The notes below the pieces were generated by a model. It saw only the letters and a program-made list of their open reading frames with translations. It made no database searches and was not told the origin of the DNA. Both the position numbers and the translations under genes were made by a program. A DNA stretch of 13,805 nt from Candidatus Thorarchaeota archaeon (GTDB taxonomy: Archaea; Asgardarchaeota; Thorarchaeia; Thorarchaeales; Thorarchaeaceae), in contig JBHIAE010000068.1 in NCBI GenBank assembly GCA_046758445.1, positions 1 to 13,805 of the forward strand, read 5' to 3'. Positions 169-8,484 of this stretch are shown here, one piece after another (the stretch's first letter is position 1; each line of letters begins with the position of its first letter).

Positions 169-244
169 CTGACATGCTTCACCTGCTTCATCCGAATGAT
201 TAATCATAGATTATTCTAGTGCCGTCGTAAGACGGGTGCTTATA

Positions 245-889
245 ATGGTGATACAGTGCACGATTGAGGTTGGAGCTGAGGACTACTACTCATGTGATTT
301 GACCCGGCAGATTCCTGTTCGTGTGACACTTGTGACCATCAATCAGGACACGGGGTTTGGAATCACTGAGTCTTTGGATGGGGACGAGGCATCAATCCAA
401 GCCTATGTCAAGGGACTTGAAGGCTCGCCGAGTATTCGTAAGGTGGAGATTATACACAAGTCCTCTGATGCATATTGGACGCGAGTAGTTCATCAACTTG
501 ACAAAGACTCTATTCATGAAACAATCCTGCAAAGTGGATGCATGACTCGCCTTCCAATAGTGATCGAACGTGGACTACAATATCATATTGTACTGGCTCC
601 CTCCCAAAGTACTCTGAGTAACCTTATTCGAACGCTCAGAACGCGTTTCGCGCATGTGAGTATAAGGAAATTGAAGTCCCAACCAACTGCATCAATTCCA
701 GTACTGCTCACAGAGAAACAACAGGAAGCCTTTCTCTTGGCCTATCGGTCAGGCTATTACGAGATGCCACGCAAGTCACGCATTGGAGAGCTATGTAAGA
801 AGTTGGGCATAAGACGCGTTGCAATGCAAGAGCGACTAAGGCGTGCTGAGATGAGAATCCTGTCAGACTTCGCAGACGCTCTGACTTGA
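245..889 (+). CDS. Bacterio-opsin activator-type (HTH_10) helix-turn-helix transcriptional regulator
   Basis: C-terminal LTEKQQEAFLLAYRSGYYEMPRK..IGELCKKLGI...MQERLRRAE matches the archaeal HTH_10 pattern. ATG at 245 follows a GGGTG RBS (234-238); the ORF track start is 236. Confidence 0.85.
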   Translation: MVIQCTIEVGAEDYYSCDLTRQIPVRVTLVTINQDTGFGITESLDGDEASIQAYVKGLEGSPSIRKVEIIHKSSDAYWTRVVHQLDKDSIHETILQSGCMTRLPIVIERGLQYHIVLAPSQSTLSNLIRTLRTRFAHVSIRKLKSQPTASIPVLLTEKQQEAFLLAYRSGYYEMPRKSRIGELCKKLGIRRVAMQERLRRAEMRILSDFADALT

Positions 890-934: not shown

Positions 935-1423
935 TCAAGTCAGGACAAGTTCGTATAGCTCAACATCTGCTCCCCAGAAATGTCGTTTCAGGTGGCCACA
1001 CTTCACAAAGCCCAGTTTCTTGTAGAGTGATATTGCCTCCTTGAGGATAGGAACCGTATCTAGCCACACCTTGAACGCACCGCTGTTCTTGGCGTATTGA
1101 ATTACCTTCTTGGTTAGAGCAGTACCGATACCCTGTCTTCTATAGGTCTTCTCAATTGCCATGTGAGTGAGAAGACAAGCCCCATGCTCCAAAATACAAC
1201 CCACTACACCGACAATCTCATCATCATCCAAAGCAACAAAATAGGTTTCACGTCCCAACCACGTCTTCATCTCCTCAGGAGAAGGCTGCCTCGATATTCT
1301 CAATTCATCTGGGAATTCATCTCTGTACTCGTCCCAAACATCCTTGTAGAGCCCTGAGATCTGCTCGGCATCAGTGGACTTCGCCCGTCTAATTGATGTA
1401 TGGTCATTCACTGTCACGCTCAT
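935..1423 (-). CDS. GNAT family N-acetyltransferase
   Basis: Acetyl-CoA motif A (YRRQGIGTAL) and AISLYKKLGF. ATG at 1423 lies 1 nt past the tkt stop; the alternative TTG start is 1438. Confidence 0.85.
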   Translation of the reverse strand: MSVTVNDHTSIRRAKSTDAEQISGLYKDVWDEYRDEFPDELRISRQPSPEEMKTWLGRETYFVALDDDEIVGVVGCILEHGACLLTHMAIEKTYRRQGIGTALTKKVIQYAKNSGAFKVWLDTVPILKEAISLYKKLGFVKCGHLKRHFWGADVELYELVLT

Positions 1424-1424
1424 C

Positions 1425-3437
1425 TCATCCTCGGCCAATCAGCCTCTTAGCATGTGCGATGACACTGTCTACCGTGAAACCATATTTCTCAAAGAGAACT
1501 CCATATGGTGCCGACGAACCGAATCTGTCAATAGACATTATCGCCCCGCAATCGCCCACCCACCGCTCCCATCCTTGTGATCTGCCTGCCTCAACTGCAA
1601 GACGTGCAGTAGTGGTCGGTCGGAGGACTGAGTCACGGTAGTCCTTGTCCTGTGCTTGGAAGAGCTCCCAGCTGGGGAAGGAAACCAGTCTTACATTAAC
1701 TCCCTCATTAGCAAGCTTCTGACCGGCTTTGACTATCAGATTGACCTCTGAGCCGGTCCCCATCAAGATGATGTCAGGGTCCCCTTTCCCTAGGTCGGCC
1801 AACACATAGGCACCCTTTGCTAGTCCCTTTGCAGAACCGTATTCCTTGCGATTGAGGATGGGAATCTTCTGGCGACTCAAGGCCATCAGCGTTGGCCCCT
1901 CAGTGCGAGTAATGGCGATTCTCCATGCCTCAACAACCTCGTTTGCATCACATGGTCGGATTACGACAAGGTCAGGGATTGCGCGTAGCGAAACCAACTG
2001 CTCCACTGGTTGATGGGTCGGTCCATCTTCTCCAAGGCCGACACTGTCATGCGTGAATACCCATATGCTCCGATGTCGCGAGAGGGCTGAGATGCGGATT
2101 GCAGGTCTCATGTAATCGGAGAAGATAAGGAATGAAGCTCCAAAAGGCAAGATTCCGCCATGAGCAGCCAGGCCATTGACGATTCCGCCCATTATGTGTT
2201 CGCGTACTCCAAAGAAGAAGTTGCGTCCCTCAGGGGTATCTTTCTGAAACGCGATGCTCTCTTTAATCCAAGTCTTCGTCGAACCAGTGAGGTCTGCTGA
2301 GCCGCCCACTAGTTCTGGTAATAGTGGGGCAACCACGTTAATGACATCTCCAGACGGATTTCGTGTTGCGACCCCTGATTCATCCTCATCATATGAAGGA
2401 AGGTCTGCATCCCAGTCTGCTGGAAGTTCGCCCTGAACGCGACGGGTCAGCTCATCGGCAAGTTCTGGATGTGCCTTCCGATAGGCTTCTAGTTTCTTCT
2501 GCCAGTCAGATTCGAGCTTCTCGCCTCTAGAAATGGCCTCGCGGAAGTATTCTAGCACGTCATCTGGGACATAGAACATTGGCTCAAGGGGCCAACCAAG
2601 CTTCTTCTTGGCCCCTTCCAGCTCTTCCCAACCCGGTGGTTCTCCATGCGCCTTGGCCGTGTCCTGTCTTGTTGGCAAGCCATAGCCTATGTGGGTACGA
2701 CACAGGATTATCGACGGGCGGGGGTCCTCCTTTGCTTTCTTTATGGCCACATCAATCGCATCTACATCATTACCATTAGATACACTCTGAACGTGCCAGC
2801 CTAGGGCTTCAAAGCGAGCTCCTCTATCTTCAGTGAATGTGATGTCGGTGCTTCCATCGATTGAAACTCGGTTGTCGTCGTAAAGGAGCACCAGCTTCCC
2901 TAATTGAAAATGCCCTGCCAATGAAGCCGCCTCGTAGGATATCCCCTCCATGAGATCGCCATCGGTGACAATTGCATAGGTGTAGTGGTCGACAATGTCG
3001 TGATTCGGTCGGTTGAATACTGCAGCCAAGTGTTTCTCTGCTATCGCCATCCCGACAGAGTTTCCAAGTCCTTGTCCAAGCGGACCGGTGGTAACCTCGA
3101 CACCTGGGGTGCAGAAGCACTCGGGATGACCAGGAGTACGGCTTTCCCATTGCCGGAAGTTCTCTATCTCTTCTTTCGGCAGGTCATATCCAGTAAGATA
3201 GAGTAGTGAATAGAGTAACATAGACCCATGACCCCCGGAAAGGACAAAGCGGTCACGATCAGCCCAATCTGGATTGCGTGGATTGAAGCGCAGGTGTCTT
3301 GTCCAAAGGGTGTAAGCCATGGCGGCGGCGCCCATTGGCATCCCAGGATGACCGGAGTTAGCTGATTGTACAGCATCGGCAGACAAGAATCTGATAGTAT
3401 TGATAGCTCGTGCCTCAAGATCTGATTGGGGGGACAT
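1425..3437 (-). CDS. tkt: Transketolase (single-chain, bacterial type)
   Basis: [33 protein letters not shown], ThDP motif DGDLMEG...[32 protein letters not shown] upstream. Confidence 0.97.
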
Positions 3438-4421: not shown

Positions 4422-4832
4422 CTAGAGCTTCAGCTCTGCTTCACTCTTCCAGAGTCCATGAATGTTGCAGTATGAAGTGGCCATCAGAGTCCCTGACTTC
4501 TCGGTCTTAAAGACAAATACCGCGATTGGCTCACTGTATATCGTGCTCGAGTCAGCTCCTTGGGCCGACTCACCATGGTGGTCAAAAGTTGTGTACCCGA
4601 TCTCAATCGGAAACTTTTCTCCATCCGGGATGAAAAACGCGTCCGCCCATCGCATTGGACGTATCGAAGTGATATGTCATTTAATGTGGTGCGCCGTCGT
4701 ATTCGGATGGGGAATCTCTTTCCCTACTGAAACCCTGATTTCGACTTTTCCGTCCTCTATCTTCACAATCTCAATGACAGGAACATGTTTCTCGGTTTTC
4801 CAGTCATCAGTCTGTATCCATTTCTTCGACAT
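4422..4832 (-). CDS. sor: Superoxide reductase (neelaredoxin / 1Fe-SOR), two exons: 4832-4681 and 4650-4422, 126 aa after joining
   Basis: Exon 1 (not in ORF track): MSKKWIQTDDWKTEKHVPVIEIVKIEDGKVEIRVSVGKEIPHPNTTAHHI. Exon 2: (K)WADAFFIPDGEKFPIEIG...YCNIHGLWKSEAELKL. All iron ligands are present (E14, H16, H42, H48, C112, H115). GGAGG RBS upstream of ATG 4832. Confidence 0.92.
4651..4680 (-). other. Putative 30-nt bulge-helix-bulge (BHB) intron in the sor mRNA
   Basis: Minus-strand insert AUGACAUAUCACUUCGAUACGUCCAAUGCG carries an in-frame UGA. The junctions form a CAUU/AAUG 4-bp helix flanked by 3-nt bulges AAA and CGA, an exon stem CCA/UGG + CGC/GCG, and an internal hairpin GACAUAUC-ACUUC-GAUACGUC. 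Confidence 0.85.
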
Positions 4833-4916: not shown

Positions 4917-6410
4917 TCAGTGTTCCAGCTTCTCCAGTTGACTAAGGGTCCATTTGCCTCTCTCTGACAGAGCATAGTAACTCCTCCGCCTGTTCTCGTG
5001 GGTCTGCTCTGTCCGAGTGCTGATTACAAGTCCGCTACTGGTGAGTTCGGTGAGATGCTGATACACACTCGGAATCTTGAGATTCAGTCCGTGCGTGTCC
5101 CTGAGTGATTTCCAAATACCATAGCCATATGACTCTCCTCCAGAGAGTATTCGGAGGATTTGGATCTTGGTCTGACCAAGCTTTGTAGATGCTCTTCGCC
5201 GTTCCACTCTGCTTAGGAGATGCTCTAGATTGCCCTTGCCCCTCACGAATGTCCGCGCTATCTCTGGATACTTCAGTCCCATTCCTGTAATGACACAGAC
5301 AACTTTGTCATCGTGATCAATACGGCCTGAGGCAACTAACTTACGAAGAACGGCCACAGTGGTTGCAGAAGCCGGTTCTGCGAAGACTCCTTCAAGTCTG
5401 GCGAGGAGCCTTACTGCTTCCAATATTTCTCTGTCTGATACTGCCATGGCCAAGCCACGGGATTCACGAATGGCCGCCAGTGCGGCGCGTCCACAGAGAG
5501 GGTTCTTCACTCCGATATCATATGCGACTGTTGTAACCATCGAAGCCGGAGCGATGGTCTTCTTTCCTTTCTCAAATGCATCAGCGATGGGTGAACAGCC
5601 AGTCGCCTGAGTACCCACTAGCCGGACTTCAGAGTCCAAGATCAAACCGATTTGCTCTAACTCTCTGAGCCCCTTCCAAATCATCGAAACGTGTCCGCCA
5701 TTACCCATAGGGGCTACAATCCAGTCAGGTGTGGTCCATCCCAGCTGGTCACAAATCTCATAGACGGTTGTCTTCTCCCCCTCCAAGAAATGAGGGTTCT
5801 GAGCCGTGACGTAATGGCTTCTACCACCTTCCCGCAGTGCCCTTGCCACTGCCTCATCATGATTCTTCACCACCTCAACATCAGAAGCATATGCCAAGAT
5901 CTGGTAGAACTTGCCAATGTCCACACTGCTCTGTTGCCCGATGAAGACTTTGCTCTTGAAACCTGCTCGAGCTGCATATGCCACAAGAGAAGCGGCCAGG
6001 TTGCCAGTGGAACCACAGCAGACAGACTTGATCCCACGTTCCTTTGCCGCAGAAATCTCAACTGCCGTCCCTCTGTCGATGAACGCTCCTGTCGGGTTGG
6101 TTGTCTCGTCCTTCAGATATAGCTCGTCTAGTTCGACCTCCTTGGCAAGTCGGTCCGACTTGTGAAGATATGTCCCTCCTTCCCCCAATGAAACCCTGTT
6201 GCCCTGTTTCGCAATGGGTAGAAGCTCGAAGTACTTCCAGACGCTGGGTCTGCGGTTCCTGAGCTTCCTTGCACTTAACCTGTTTCTGATACTTTCAAGG
6301 TCATATTCAATCTGTAGTGCGTTTCCACATTCAGTACAGATTGCCATGTACATCTCTGCCTTGTAGTCCTCACCGCAATGTGTACAAATGAGTCTGGAGA
6401 GAAATGACAT
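4917..6410 (-). CDS. Threonine-synthase-like (fold-type II PLP) domain lacking the catalytic Lys, fused to a C-terminal PadR-type winged HTH; probable transcriptional regulator
   Basis: N-terminal CxxC...CxxC ribbon, SLGEGGT, LYLKDETTNPTGAFIDRG (I where ThrC has K), STGNLAASLVAYAARAG, PMGNGG, EPASA, TGMGLK. C-terminal ILRILSGGESYGYGIWKSL...SVYQHLTEL..SGLV...RRRSYYALSERG is PadR-like. Confidence 0.85.
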   Translation of the reverse strand: MSFLSRLICTHCGEDYKAEMYMAICTECGNALQIEYDLESIRNRLSARKLRNRRPSVWKYFELLPIAKQGNRVSLGEGGTYLHKSDRLAKEVELDELYLKDETTNPTGAFIDRGTAVEISAAKERGIKSVCCGSTGNLAASLVAYAARAGFKSKVFIGQQSSVDIGKFYQILAYASDVEVVKNHDEAVARALREGGRSHYVTAQNPHFLEGEKTTVYEICDQLGWTTPDWIVAPMGNGGHVSMIWKGLRELEQIGLILDSEVRLVGTQATGCSPIADAFEKGKKTIAPASMVTTVAYDIGVKNPLCGRAALAAIRESRGLAMAVSDREILEAVRLLARLEGVFAEPASATTVAVLRKLVASGRIDHDDKVVCVITGMGLKYPEIARTFVRGKGNLEHLLSRVERRRASTKLGQTKIQILRILSGGESYGYGIWKSLRDTHGLNLKIPSVYQHLTELTSSGLVISTRTEQTHENRRRSYYALSERGKWTLSQLEKLEH

Positions 6411-6420
6411 CGTGGACTCG

Positions 6421-6434
6421 GCCTATATATAGGC
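6421..6434. promoter_or_regulatory. Perfect 14-bp palindrome GCCTATATATAGGC, candidate operator in a divergent promoter
   Basis: Exact inverted symmetry. It lies between the ThrC-PadR start (6410) and a TATA-like TTATATATT at 6441-6449, upstream of the divergent ECF gene. Confidence 0.5.
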
Positions 6435-6481
6435 TCAAAGTTATATATTCCCTTTGCATTCTCCATCTTGGGTGAGCAAGG

Positions 6482-7075
6482 CTGGAGTACTTCGTTTCAA
6501 AGACATCGGACACCTCACTCTATGTAGCTCTTCTAGCAATACTGACTGCATTGACTACTGTTGCCACGGCGGTACTCGTAGTGCCGTTTCCCTCCACACA
6601 AGGTTATTTCAATCTCGGAGACTCTCTTGTGATGATAAGTGGATTCCTCCTCGGTCCTGCTGGAGGGTTTTTTGCAGGAGGAGTGGGCTCCGCAATGGCC
6701 GATCTGATTCTTGGATTTCCGGGATTTGCCCCAATCACTTTCATCGCGAAAGGTCTGGAAGGCCTTGTGGTTGGTTTCCTGAGCTTTCGGACAATGCGAA
6801 AGAAGACTCTCAGTGGATGGGACATACTCGGACTGCTCCTAGGTTCAGTAGCGATGCTGTTGGGCTACCTACTTGGAGAGATGTTCATGCTCGGCTACAC
6901 ATTTGAGGTGGCGGCATTGGAGCTTGTCACCATCAACTCTATCCAGGTGACAATGGGATCGATAGTCACAATTCTAATAGGACCCCTCTTGAGAGTCTAC
7001 CTTAGAGATGTTCTTTACGAGCCTCCTGCCACGTCACCATGGGAATTGGAAACTGAAGCAGCAGCTGACCATTAG
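6482..7075 (+). CDS. ECF transporter S component (substrate-binding membrane subunit)
   Basis: Hydrophobic multi-helix protein with P.TQGYFNLGDS...GFLLGP..GFFAGGVGSAMADL..GF..FAPITFIAKGLEG. The frame stays open upstream of the ORF-track TTG (6551) to a CTG at 6482 that follows GGTGA (6471-6475). Confidence 0.85.
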   Translation: MEYFVSKTSDTSLYVALLAILTALTTVATAVLVVPFPSTQGYFNLGDSLVMISGFLLGPAGGFFAGGVGSAMADLILGFPGFAPITFIAKGLEGLVVGFLSFRTMRKKTLSGWDILGLLLGSVAMLLGYLLGEMFMLGYTFEVAALELVTINSIQVTMGSIVTILIGPLLRVYLRDVLYEPPATSPWELETEAAADH

Positions 7076-7203: not shown

Positions 7204-8484
7204 ATGACTAACAGGCAGAAGCTTAAGATAGAAACGAAACGGCTCAATGAGATCAATGACTTCCTTCTCCGAGAAGACAATCCACTAGTCACCGGCATCA
7301 TTGAGGTGATTGAGAAATATGGGGGCGTCGATGAGATCAACAGTGAGGCTAGCGAAGCCCGAAAGCTTGAGAACCTTATGGCAATGCTGGAGAAGAAGAA
7401 CTCGTCATACGTGGCCGACCTGCAATGGTTGCAGGAGCAGCGTGACAACGATGCTTTCGTCAGCATTCCCGAGTACCGCCGCAAGGTCTTAGGAGAGAAA
7501 GCTGACAGCATGGACTTTGATGAGAGCTTCGCAGTCACGCTGGAGATCAGTGCGTGTCAGTACTTCCCTTGGGTGATTGAGGAGGCCAAACAATCAATCA
7601 CAAATCAGGAGCTAATGCCTAGGCGTTTCATAAGAGTACGAAACATGCAGGAACAGAGTAATGACGATGACGTCATTGCATTTGCAGCAGCTATGCAAAT
7701 AGTGGACTCGTCCTATGTCGAAACCCTTGATACAAAGGGAACCTTTCCAGGACCCGATGGTGCACCGGCTAACATCCACCTTGGGGGTCCAGATACAATC
7801 ACTGGATACTTTGGCGGAGTCGGCATGCCAAACGACTTCGCATTGAAATGGGCAGATGAATACCTACACTACTTCACAAAGTATGGGGTCAAGCAGGTCC
7901 TTAACATCAATCCGGGTAGTGTGCTCGTAGGCTACATGATGCACAAGTTGGGCATTGACATGGAGTTCAAGATCAGCGTCTTCATGGGTAACGACAATCC
8001 CTATGCATGTCTGTGGACTCTAATGACTGCGAAGATGTTCAGCAGAGAGGACGGCACTTCTCCTCTTATTGGGTTCAACCTTTCCAACAGTGTAAACAAC
8101 GAAACCATAGAGCTTGCTGCATATGCCAGGGAGAACTTTGGCTTCGAAGATGTAGTCAGGATTGAACACCACATCACTGAAACCTACAAGAGCATCGTCC
8201 GCCAGCCCTATGATCGTCTAGATGAACTAGTCGAGCTTGCTGACCACGTCAAGAACATCAGTGCCAAACATGAAGGTGGACCTCCGGACATAGATGGGAA
8301 ACGTGAACATCCTAGCGACATTCTAGATTACTTCAGACAGAAGTCCGAGGTCATCGAAGCAGGCGACATGCCCCATCTATTGAGAAACTATCTCGACAAG
8401 CATGACGCAGTGAATAGGACTGCTCGAGCACTGACAGAAAATGGCTTCTCCTTCATAGCAGCACAGAAACTACACAAGTTGTAG
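7204..8484 (+). CDS. Hypothetical protein (426 aa, soluble, enzyme-like composition)
   Basis: Long ORF with natural amino-acid composition and a GGGTG RBS upstream. I recognise no family motif with confidence. Confidence 0.8.
   Translation: MTNRQKLKIETKRLNEINDFLLREDNPLVTGIIEVIEKYGGVDEINSEASEARKLENLMAMLEKKNSSYVADLQWLQEQRDNDAFVSIPEYRRKVLGEKADSMDFDESFAVTLEISACQYFPWVIEEAKQSITNQELMPRRFIRVRNMQEQSNDDDVIAFAAAMQIVDSSYVETLDTKGTFPGPDGAPANIHLGGPDTITGYFGGVGMPNDFALKWADEYLHYFTKYGVKQVLNINPGSVLVGYMMHKLGIDMEFKISVFMGNDNPYACLWTLMTAKMFSREDGTSPLIGFNLSNSVNNETIELAAYARENFGFEDVVRIEHHITETYKSIVRQPYDRLDELVELADHVKNISAKHEGGPPDIDGKREHPSDILDYFRQKSEVIEAGDMPHLLRNYLDKHDAVNRTARALTENGFSFIAAQKLHKL

Follow-up and report, generated by a model that had tools for sequence, protein, structure and literature searches.

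What does a threonine synthase (ThrC) do once the lysine that holds its cofactor has been replaced and a DNA-binding domain has been joined to its end? The question is raised by a gene on a 13,805-nucleotide stretch (the window), which is the entire contig C68 of a Candidatus Thorarchaeota metagenome-assembled genome (3.25 Mb in 113 contigs, 92.7% complete, 3.95% contamination). Proteins encoded on it have their nearest named relatives in Candidatus Thorarchaeota, a group of Asgard archaea. The gene, here called the regulator gene, faces an importer gene across a short intergenic region. We consider it likely that it encodes a transcription factor rather than an enzyme, and that this protein senses vitamin B6, as pyridoxal 5'-phosphate (PLP) or a related vitamer, without a covalent bond, represses its own gene and controls B6 uptake. 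The regulator gene and its parts are as follows.

4917–6410, minus strand: regulator gene, 497 amino acids (aa), with a zinc ribbon, a ThrC-type PLP fold lacking the lysine and a PadR winged helix-turn-helix (wHTH) (open reading frame (ORF), translation, Pfam, AlphaFold2 (AF2) and Foldseek)
6303–6392, minus strand: N-terminal four-cysteine zinc ribbon, residues about 7–36 (C9, C12, C25, C28; cysteine conservation in relatives)
5283–6194, minus strand: fold-type II PLP domain, residues 73–376, presumed sensor (PF00291)
6078–6080, minus strand: codon ATC, Ile111, at the Schiff-base lysine position (codon read and alignment to solved ThrC)
4941–5159, minus strand: PadR-type wHTH, residues 418–490 (PF03551)

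A threonine synthase fold without its lysine

Pfam assigned residues 73–376 to PALP (PF00291, E 1.8e-66), with identical coordinates in a whole-genome search, and residues 418–490 to PadR (PF03551, E 9.4e-12; 45.2 bits against a cut-off of 27). No GntR or Aminotran_1_2 match was obtained from Pfam, and the architecture is PALP plus PadR. The C-terminal domain matched the PadR structures 5dym and 3l7w in the PDB. An AF2 model built on 56 family members (predicted local distance difference test, pLDDT, 92.8) consists of a ThrC body, a flexible linker at residues 405–409 and a C-terminal winged helix, in which residues 413–496 form a unit of three helices and a two-strand wing in the order helix-helix-helix-strand-strand. 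A PadR winged helix had been proposed in an earlier reading of the letters alone (the sequence-only reading), and both the Pfam score and the model bear it out. Both paralogues of this genome have the same presumed recognition helix (IPSVYQHL.ELTSSGL), which is nearly invariant across the family. The best Foldseek matches to the model were threonine synthases, with template modeling (TM) scores of 0.84–0.88 by target (0.86 for 2zsj), and no solved chain in that search covered the whole fused ThrC-PadR form. The zinc ribbon, which the sequence-only reading had passed over, keeps its four cysteines in fused and unfused relatives alike.

Fold-type II PLP enzymes use this lysine for two tasks, to anchor the cofactor as a Schiff base and to act as catalytic base. 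In HMMER alignments to the solved threonine synthases 2zsj, 2d1f and 6cgq, Ile111 of the regulator sits under the K of NPTGSFKDRG. The minus-strand codons aac ccg aca gga gcg ttc ATC gac aga ggg translate as NPTGAFIDRG, with ATC at 6080–6078, in agreement with the substitution first reported from the letters. ATC differs at two bases from each of the lysine codons AAA and AAG, and lysine is absent family-wide, so the accompanying judgment that a single-base error is unlikely was sound. The other ThrC motifs that had been listed as retained are present as GSTGNL (133–138), PMGNGGH (234–240), EPASA (345–349) and TGMGLK (375–380).

The nearest 120 proteins (52–73% identity) all have the PALP plus PadR architecture, and each of the 117 with a readable motif carries Ile or Leu at the lysine position. 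Among 50%-identity cluster representatives, this position is I, L, V, M, T, N, A or F in the fused forms and Lys in the unfused ones, which are about 410 aa long. Position 111 in the 56 representatives of fused group A was read as I in 19, L in 19, V in 7, M in 5, T in 3 and N, A and F in one each; lysine was found in 0% of them versus 100% of 77 unfused relatives. A set of reference genomes, covering Bathyarchaeia, Nitrososphaerota (including Terraquivivens), Odin, Jord and others, contained 59 fused genes, and 52 of these lack the lysine; the seven that keep it all belong to a second fused group. The expectation of the sequence-only reading that PALP plus PadR homologues would share the lysine loss thus holds for the close homologues and for 52/59 reference genes, and is qualified by a distant fused subfamily, which has Arg or, in 7/59 genes, Lys. 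A FastTree tree of the PLP domain alone placed 55 fused Lys-less proteins in one clade (99% local support), joined by one 519-aa protein without the C-terminal domain. The second, smaller fused group (NPTNSF[R/K/S]DR) fell between this clade and the unfused Lys-bearing proteins. Separately, ThrC-like proteins of about 611–633 aa (P0181, P0197, P0204–P0207, P0215, P0227 and P0261) keep the lysine and end in a different extension about 200 aa long.

Since the genome was assembled from a metagenome and has 3.95% contamination, the substitution could in principle be an assembly or sequencing artefact, or the gene could be a decaying pseudogene. The frame is open, however, the same class of substitution occurs in hundreds of independent assemblies, the 67%-identical paralogue in this genome also has Ile, and the nearest lysine codon is two base changes away. 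The family-wide conservation refutes this explanation, to which we assign a negligible probability.

The loss is also highly selective. We compared about 70 positions that are at least 80% conserved in the 77 Lys-bearing relatives with the main fused clade, and Lys111 was the sole position wholly lost. The clade retains, at 88–100%, the motifs associated with the cofactor, NPT, F110, D112-R113, G136-N137, G236/G238, E345-P346 and T375-G376-x-G378, and its only clade-specific conserved residues are L138, Y169 and D298. A substitute lysine, which the sequence-only reading had named as grounds for giving up its proposal, was sought in this column comparison, and no clade-specific conserved Lys was found. 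A second difference, not mentioned in that reading, concerns the NPyRiEG motif (NPYRIEG in 2zsj, NPVRIEG in 2d1f, NPYRLEG in 6cgq): Phe207 of NPHFLEG aligns under its Arg, a residue reported to hold the substrate phosphate in the 1v7c structure. None of the fused loci in the reference-genome set has Arg at this position. The regulator has a ThrC-type fold, but the Schiff-base lysine and the NPyRiEG Arg have no counterpart in it.

Threonine synthase genes with the lysine occur elsewhere in the genome. Two unfused Lys-bearing thrC genes, on contigs C11 and C26, pass the NF006050 cut-off (466 and 328 bits against 303), confirming the separate intact thrC whose presence the sequence-only reading had asked about. 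A fused Lys-less paralogue on C14 (C14:53420–54904; L010:1501–2994) is 67% identical to the regulator and has Ile at the lysine position. This paralogue has its own divergent importer component of family PF07155, about 50% identical to the one in the window, and the same core of the candidate operator described below; genomes of the same genus have one copy, which corresponds in orthology and synteny to the window copy and not to the C14 copy.

The regulator might instead be bifunctional, still catalyzing a PLP reaction on cofactor that is free or anchored in some other way. Almost all ThrC motifs except the lysine are intact, the NF006050 cut-off is passed, and RbkR, an archaeal regulator with an enzyme fold, keeps its kinase activity (PMC5397151). 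Set against this are the clade-wide replacement of Lys by I, L, V or M, the lack of a compensating conserved Lys and the two Lys-bearing ThrC genes elsewhere in the genome, and we regard continued catalysis as very improbable.

The same scores bear on annotation. The regulator passes NF006050 (338 bits against 303) and TIGR00260 (219 against 167), and falls below the cut-off of NF004170 (PRK05638; 289.6 bits over residues 8–492 against 421), a model whose positions 357–440 are also matched by small PadR-like ORFs in the genome. Because the regulator passes the NF006050 cut-off, it and its relatives carry "threonine synthase" labels in public records. The NF006050 pass together with the name of NF004170, a model of a fused wHTH form called threonine synthase, is a source of systematic misannotation, which inflates the apparent redundancy of the threonine pathway and hides the regulator in Asgard, Bathyarchaeia and Nitrososphaerota genomes.

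Linkage to vitamin B6 import and synthesis

The regulator gene and its neighbor are divergent across 68 bp:

6479–7075, plus strand: S-component gene of an energy-coupling factor (ECF) transporter, PdxU/HmpT family (PF07155, E 1e-29; 117.7 bits in the genome search)

In the PDB the S-component gave a significant match to 4hzu_S alone (HmpT, E 6e-15). Pyridoxamine was identified as the HmpT substrate (PMC4860826), and PdxU and PdxU2/HmpT are placed in COG4720/PF07155 (PMC9997740).

We searched an Asgard sample for the regulator, found it in 37/201 genomes at E <= 1e-100 and fetched 29 loci. A PF07155 S-component adjoins the regulator in 28 of the 29, and in the exception (G041) the divergent neighbor is pdxS-pdxT. 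The two partners also occur in other arrangements: G007 has the order regulator, pdxS, pdxT with a 44-nt gap, G048 has a PF07155 S-component beside pdxST, and in the Nitrososphaerales locus L097 pdxS-pdxT abut the regulator. In the reference genomes, an S-component or pdxS lies within 400 nt of 45/59 fused genes by tblastn, and of one more by Pfam. As a control, neither was found within 400 nt of any of the 21 unfused Lys-bearing ThrC genes from the same scan. Control of the importer by the regulator is highly probable.

An alternative is that the protein is a regulator whose sensor reads a metabolite of the ThrC pathway (O-phosphohomoserine, threonine, homoserine or a PLP-amino-acid aldimine) and not the B6 pool. 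Conservation extends beyond the cofactor-contacting motifs to nearly the whole ThrC pocket, and the group-specific L138, Y169 and D298 could reshape the substrate site. The linked genes, however, encode the PdxU/HmpT-type importer or PdxS-PdxT and never belong to the threonine pathway, and Phe replaces the NPyRiEG Arg of the solved ThrC enzymes. We consider a pathway-metabolite sensor unlikely, and a B6 vitamer remains the probable effector.

The B6 supply of the genome is in keeping with import. Neither PdxS nor PdxJ was found in this genome, at 92.7% completeness, and two ECF T components are present. Among 15 regulator-bearing Asgard genomes tested for PdxS, this one included, 12 lack it, and in two of the three that have it the regulator abuts pdxS. 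The presence of the regulator where pdxS and pdxJ are missing suggests that Thorarchaeota-like organisms are B6 auxotrophs that scavenge the vitamin under regulation.

Other genes near the regulators were also considered. The gene at 7204–8484 (plus strand), often found just after the S-component gene, encodes a protein of 426 aa that matched nothing in Pfam, NCBIfam or the PDB and gave a poor AF2 model (pLDDT 59); it is 73–95% identical across Thorarchaeota-like genomes. It was rejected as a regulon member and is regarded as a syntenic neighbor only, being present in 39/41 family genomes, including those without the regulator. A PNPOx-like gene beside the C14 paralogue was likewise discarded as a PdxH candidate, since it encodes an F420-dependent PPOX-class protein, and is not counted as evidence on B6. 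On the other side of the regulator, a 77-aa ORF (4422–4655, minus strand) matches only the C-terminal iron-binding part of desulfoferrodoxin/neelaredoxin (PF01880, positions 57–97) and may be a short superoxide-reductase-like gene or a fragment.

A conserved palindrome and the proposed regulation

Two further features lie in the shared intergenic region:

6422–6433, strandless: 12-bp perfect palindrome CCTATATATAGG, candidate operator, 11 nt upstream of the regulator ATG (uniqueness and conservation)
6441–6449, on the regulator strand: TATA-like box AATATATAA, 7 nt upstream of the palindrome (conserved spacing)

Inspection of the sequence and a pattern search revealed the palindrome; a repeat search of the intergenic region, by a method that omits short-unit runs, reported no inverted repeat. 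On the regulator strand the layout is AATATATAA, 7 nt, CCTATATATAGG, 11 nt, ATG, and the conserved spacing suggests that the TATA-like box is the promoter TATA of the regulator. The window contains one copy of CCTATATATAGG versus 0.01 expected. The 3.25-Mb genome contains three, one before each regulator paralogue and one on C14 with an HTH_10 gene on one side and a GNAT gene on the other; with a symmetrized position weight matrix these sites score 24–28 bits, and all else scores at most 14.5.

The arrangement is also conserved. The layout ATATATAA-N7-palindrome-N(about 11)-ATG recurs in about 28 Asgard loci, and small variants of the palindrome occupy the same place in other groups: Terraquivivens has CCTACATATAGG, Nitrososphaerales or Nitrosopumilales have CCTATATATCGG, and one more occurs at a Bathyarchaeia locus of group A. 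The loci with variants include the one where pdxS is the neighbor of the regulator, and in G041 two boxes lie between pdxS and the regulator. In 41 family genomes the exact 12-mer occurs 24 times, versus eight for the reversed control pattern, and 22 of the 24 sites precede the regulator. It is present in 16 of the 20 family genomes with the regulator, the other four having one-base variants, and in none of the 12 without it. From these patterns, we judge it very probable that the protein is a DNA-binding regulator with this palindrome as its operator.

We propose the following mechanism. The ThrC-type domain keeps its cofactor pocket, with a hydrophobic residue in place of the Schiff-base lysine. 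Because there is no such lysine, a B6 vitamer, most likely PLP, could bind only reversibly, and occupancy would track the free cofactor pool. PLP or pyridoxamine 5'-phosphate (PMP) is favored as the effector because a reversible, non-covalent site suits sensing of the free PLP pool. The PadR winged helix, presumably dimeric, would bind CCTATATATAGG between the TATA box and the regulator start, within the shared 68 bp. With the TATA centered about 26–27 nt upstream of the transcript start, the palindrome would cover roughly -16 to -5 of the regulator promoter. Archaeal repressors at about -16 to -5 block polymerase recruitment. On the importer side, the palindrome would lie just upstream of the importer TATA element or double as it, so occupancy must affect the importer promoter as well, in either direction. 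When B6 is plentiful, the liganded protein would probably sit on the operator, shutting off its own gene and modulating, most likely repressing, the importer; that the liganded form is the repressing one is favored, with somewhat less assurance than the B6 effector. In B6-making relatives the same regulator family would act on pdxS-pdxT instead. The B6 ligand proposed in the sequence-only reading gains independent support from the gene context (the PdxU/HmpT-family importer or pdxST) and from the conserved operator.

Peculiar to this genome are the duplicated regulator/importer module, whose two pairs have the same operator core, and the third operator before the GNAT gene. The third exact site (C14:60949–60960; L019:12950–12961) has the same TATA-N7 layout and precedes a GNAT acetyltransferase gene (L019:13011–13565) that is divergent from an HTH_10 regulator. 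Orthologues of this GNAT protein (44–53% identity) are encoded in the S-component operon elsewhere: in G179 and G200 the gene separates the operator from the S-component, and two loci of Hermodarchaeum type have it behind the S-component. This suggests that the GNAT gene is an unexplained member of the regulon. The window has an HTH_10 regulator (236–889, plus strand) and a GNAT gene (935–1438, minus strand) that are distant paralogues of the C14 pair (32% and 39% identity), and no operator was found alongside them.

Several observations weigh against a B6 sensor controlling a B6 importer. The substrate contacts of HmpT (PMC4860826) are only partly kept in the S-component, where E41 aligns with D and H84 with K, so its substrate could be another vitamer or another compound, and the Pfam name of PF07155 is that of a riboflavin transporter family. 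At the conserved MEYF start position the S-component gene has CTG (6479), where the C14 paralogue has TTG and same-genus orthologues have ATG. The first in-frame ATG, GTG or TTG is a TTG at 6551 and would remove much of the first transmembrane helix; the CTG may reflect use of a rare start codon, a mistake in assembly or the beginning of decay in this copy. The search of the genome gave no pyridoxal kinase that would turn an imported unphosphorylated vitamer into PLP (the PdxK family gave only a 19-bit match and none over the cut-off). The palindrome is TATA-like in sequence and could also serve as a promoter element. Finally, the distant fused subfamily, with its Arg or its Lys in 7/59 genes, has a different upstream motif. 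Fusion and lysine loss are not strictly coupled, and with Arg or Lys at the catalytic position the argument for non-covalent sensing cannot be transferred to that subfamily unchanged. Its loci (L068–L113, from Bathyarchaeia, Odin and Jord) have NPTNSF[R/K]DR[A/C/S], mostly with Arg and sometimes with Lys; the genes usually lie upstream of and co-directional with an S-component, and the upstream motif is AACCGATAAAAG-like.

The first of these observations would also suit a regulator that controls the transporter of a different micronutrient, for instance hydroxymethylpyrimidine (first predicted as the HmpT substrate) or riboflavin, with a sensor that binds that compound: PF07155 is functionally mixed and labeled riboflavin, and the HmpT contact residues are incompletely kept. 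Yet the alternative neighbor of the regulator is pdxS-pdxT, the sensor has a PLP fold in which the cofactor motifs are intact, and archaeal riboflavin control is already assigned to RbkR (PMC5397151). Another micronutrient is therefore a doubtful explanation, a little more so than a ThrC-pathway metabolite, and we retain the B6 sensor.

We lean, somewhat cautiously, toward an undescribed archaeal family of B6 regulators that senses free PLP (or PMP) without a Schiff base and that in this genome has been duplicated with its importer into two cross-talking modules, maybe tuned to different vitamers, with one operator shared with the GNAT gene. Our literature search found no paper describing a ThrC-PadR protein or an archaeal B6 regulator. 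Archaeal B6 homeostasis has no described regulator, and B6 transporters are poorly known (PMC9997740). With a regulator, its operator sequence and its regulon (a PdxU-type importer, or pdxST) all proposed, the family lends itself to direct testing. It is also a clean case of a pseudoenzyme, in which one catalytic residue was removed, the cofactor pocket was kept and a DNA-binding domain was attached.

Comparison with known systems

The regulator shares its fold with the threonine synthases 2zsj, 2d1f, 6cgq and 1uim (TM 0.84–0.88 by target, 36–40% identity) and keeps most of their motifs. It differs from them in having neither the Schiff-base Lys nor the NPyRiEG Arg, in its extra DNA-binding domain and in its linkage to B6 genes. 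The NF004170 model, 442 positions long, spans a PLP fold and a C-terminal wHTH; despite the same architecture the regulator lies outside this equivalog, and a regulatory role contradicts the enzyme name.

Stand-alone PadR proteins (LmrR 3f8b, 5dym) resemble it in a wHTH over the Pfam cut-off and a palindromic candidate target, and the conserved, nearly unique palindrome is indirect evidence that the PadR domain may bind DNA sequence-specifically as a dimer. Classical PadR proteins have 110–180 aa and hold their ligand at the dimer interface, whereas here the wHTH ends the protein and the presumed sensor is a 400-aa enzyme fold.

Archaeal vitamin regulators that join an enzyme to a wHTH include ThiR as well as RbkR. 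RbkR is, like the regulator, an archaeal protein with a vitamin-related enzyme fold and a wHTH, and its operators precede vitamin synthesis and uptake genes and its own gene (PMC5397151). RbkR is an active riboflavin kinase, whereas the regulator derives from an enzyme that merely uses the vitamin as cofactor and appears to be catalytically disabled. Its sensor is PF00291 and not a riboflavin kinase, its DNA-binding family is different, and the two are not homologous.

Bacterial PdxR regulons include pdxST, pdxK and pdxU, and Archaea reportedly lack regulators of the MocR type (PMC5320631). The likeness to PdxR/MocR lies in a presumed sensor derived from a PLP enzyme and fused to a winged helix, and would extend to a regulon of pdxST and pdxU and to autoregulation from a divergent promoter, which the gene adjacency and operator placement seen here fit. 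MocR proteins have an N-terminal GntR wHTH and a fold-type I aminotransferase domain that retains its Schiff-base Lys, whereas the regulator has a C-terminal PadR wHTH, a fold-type II ThrC domain with the Lys replaced, and a zinc ribbon. By analogy, the protein would work like PdxR but with neither of the PdxR domains, and it stands outside that family.

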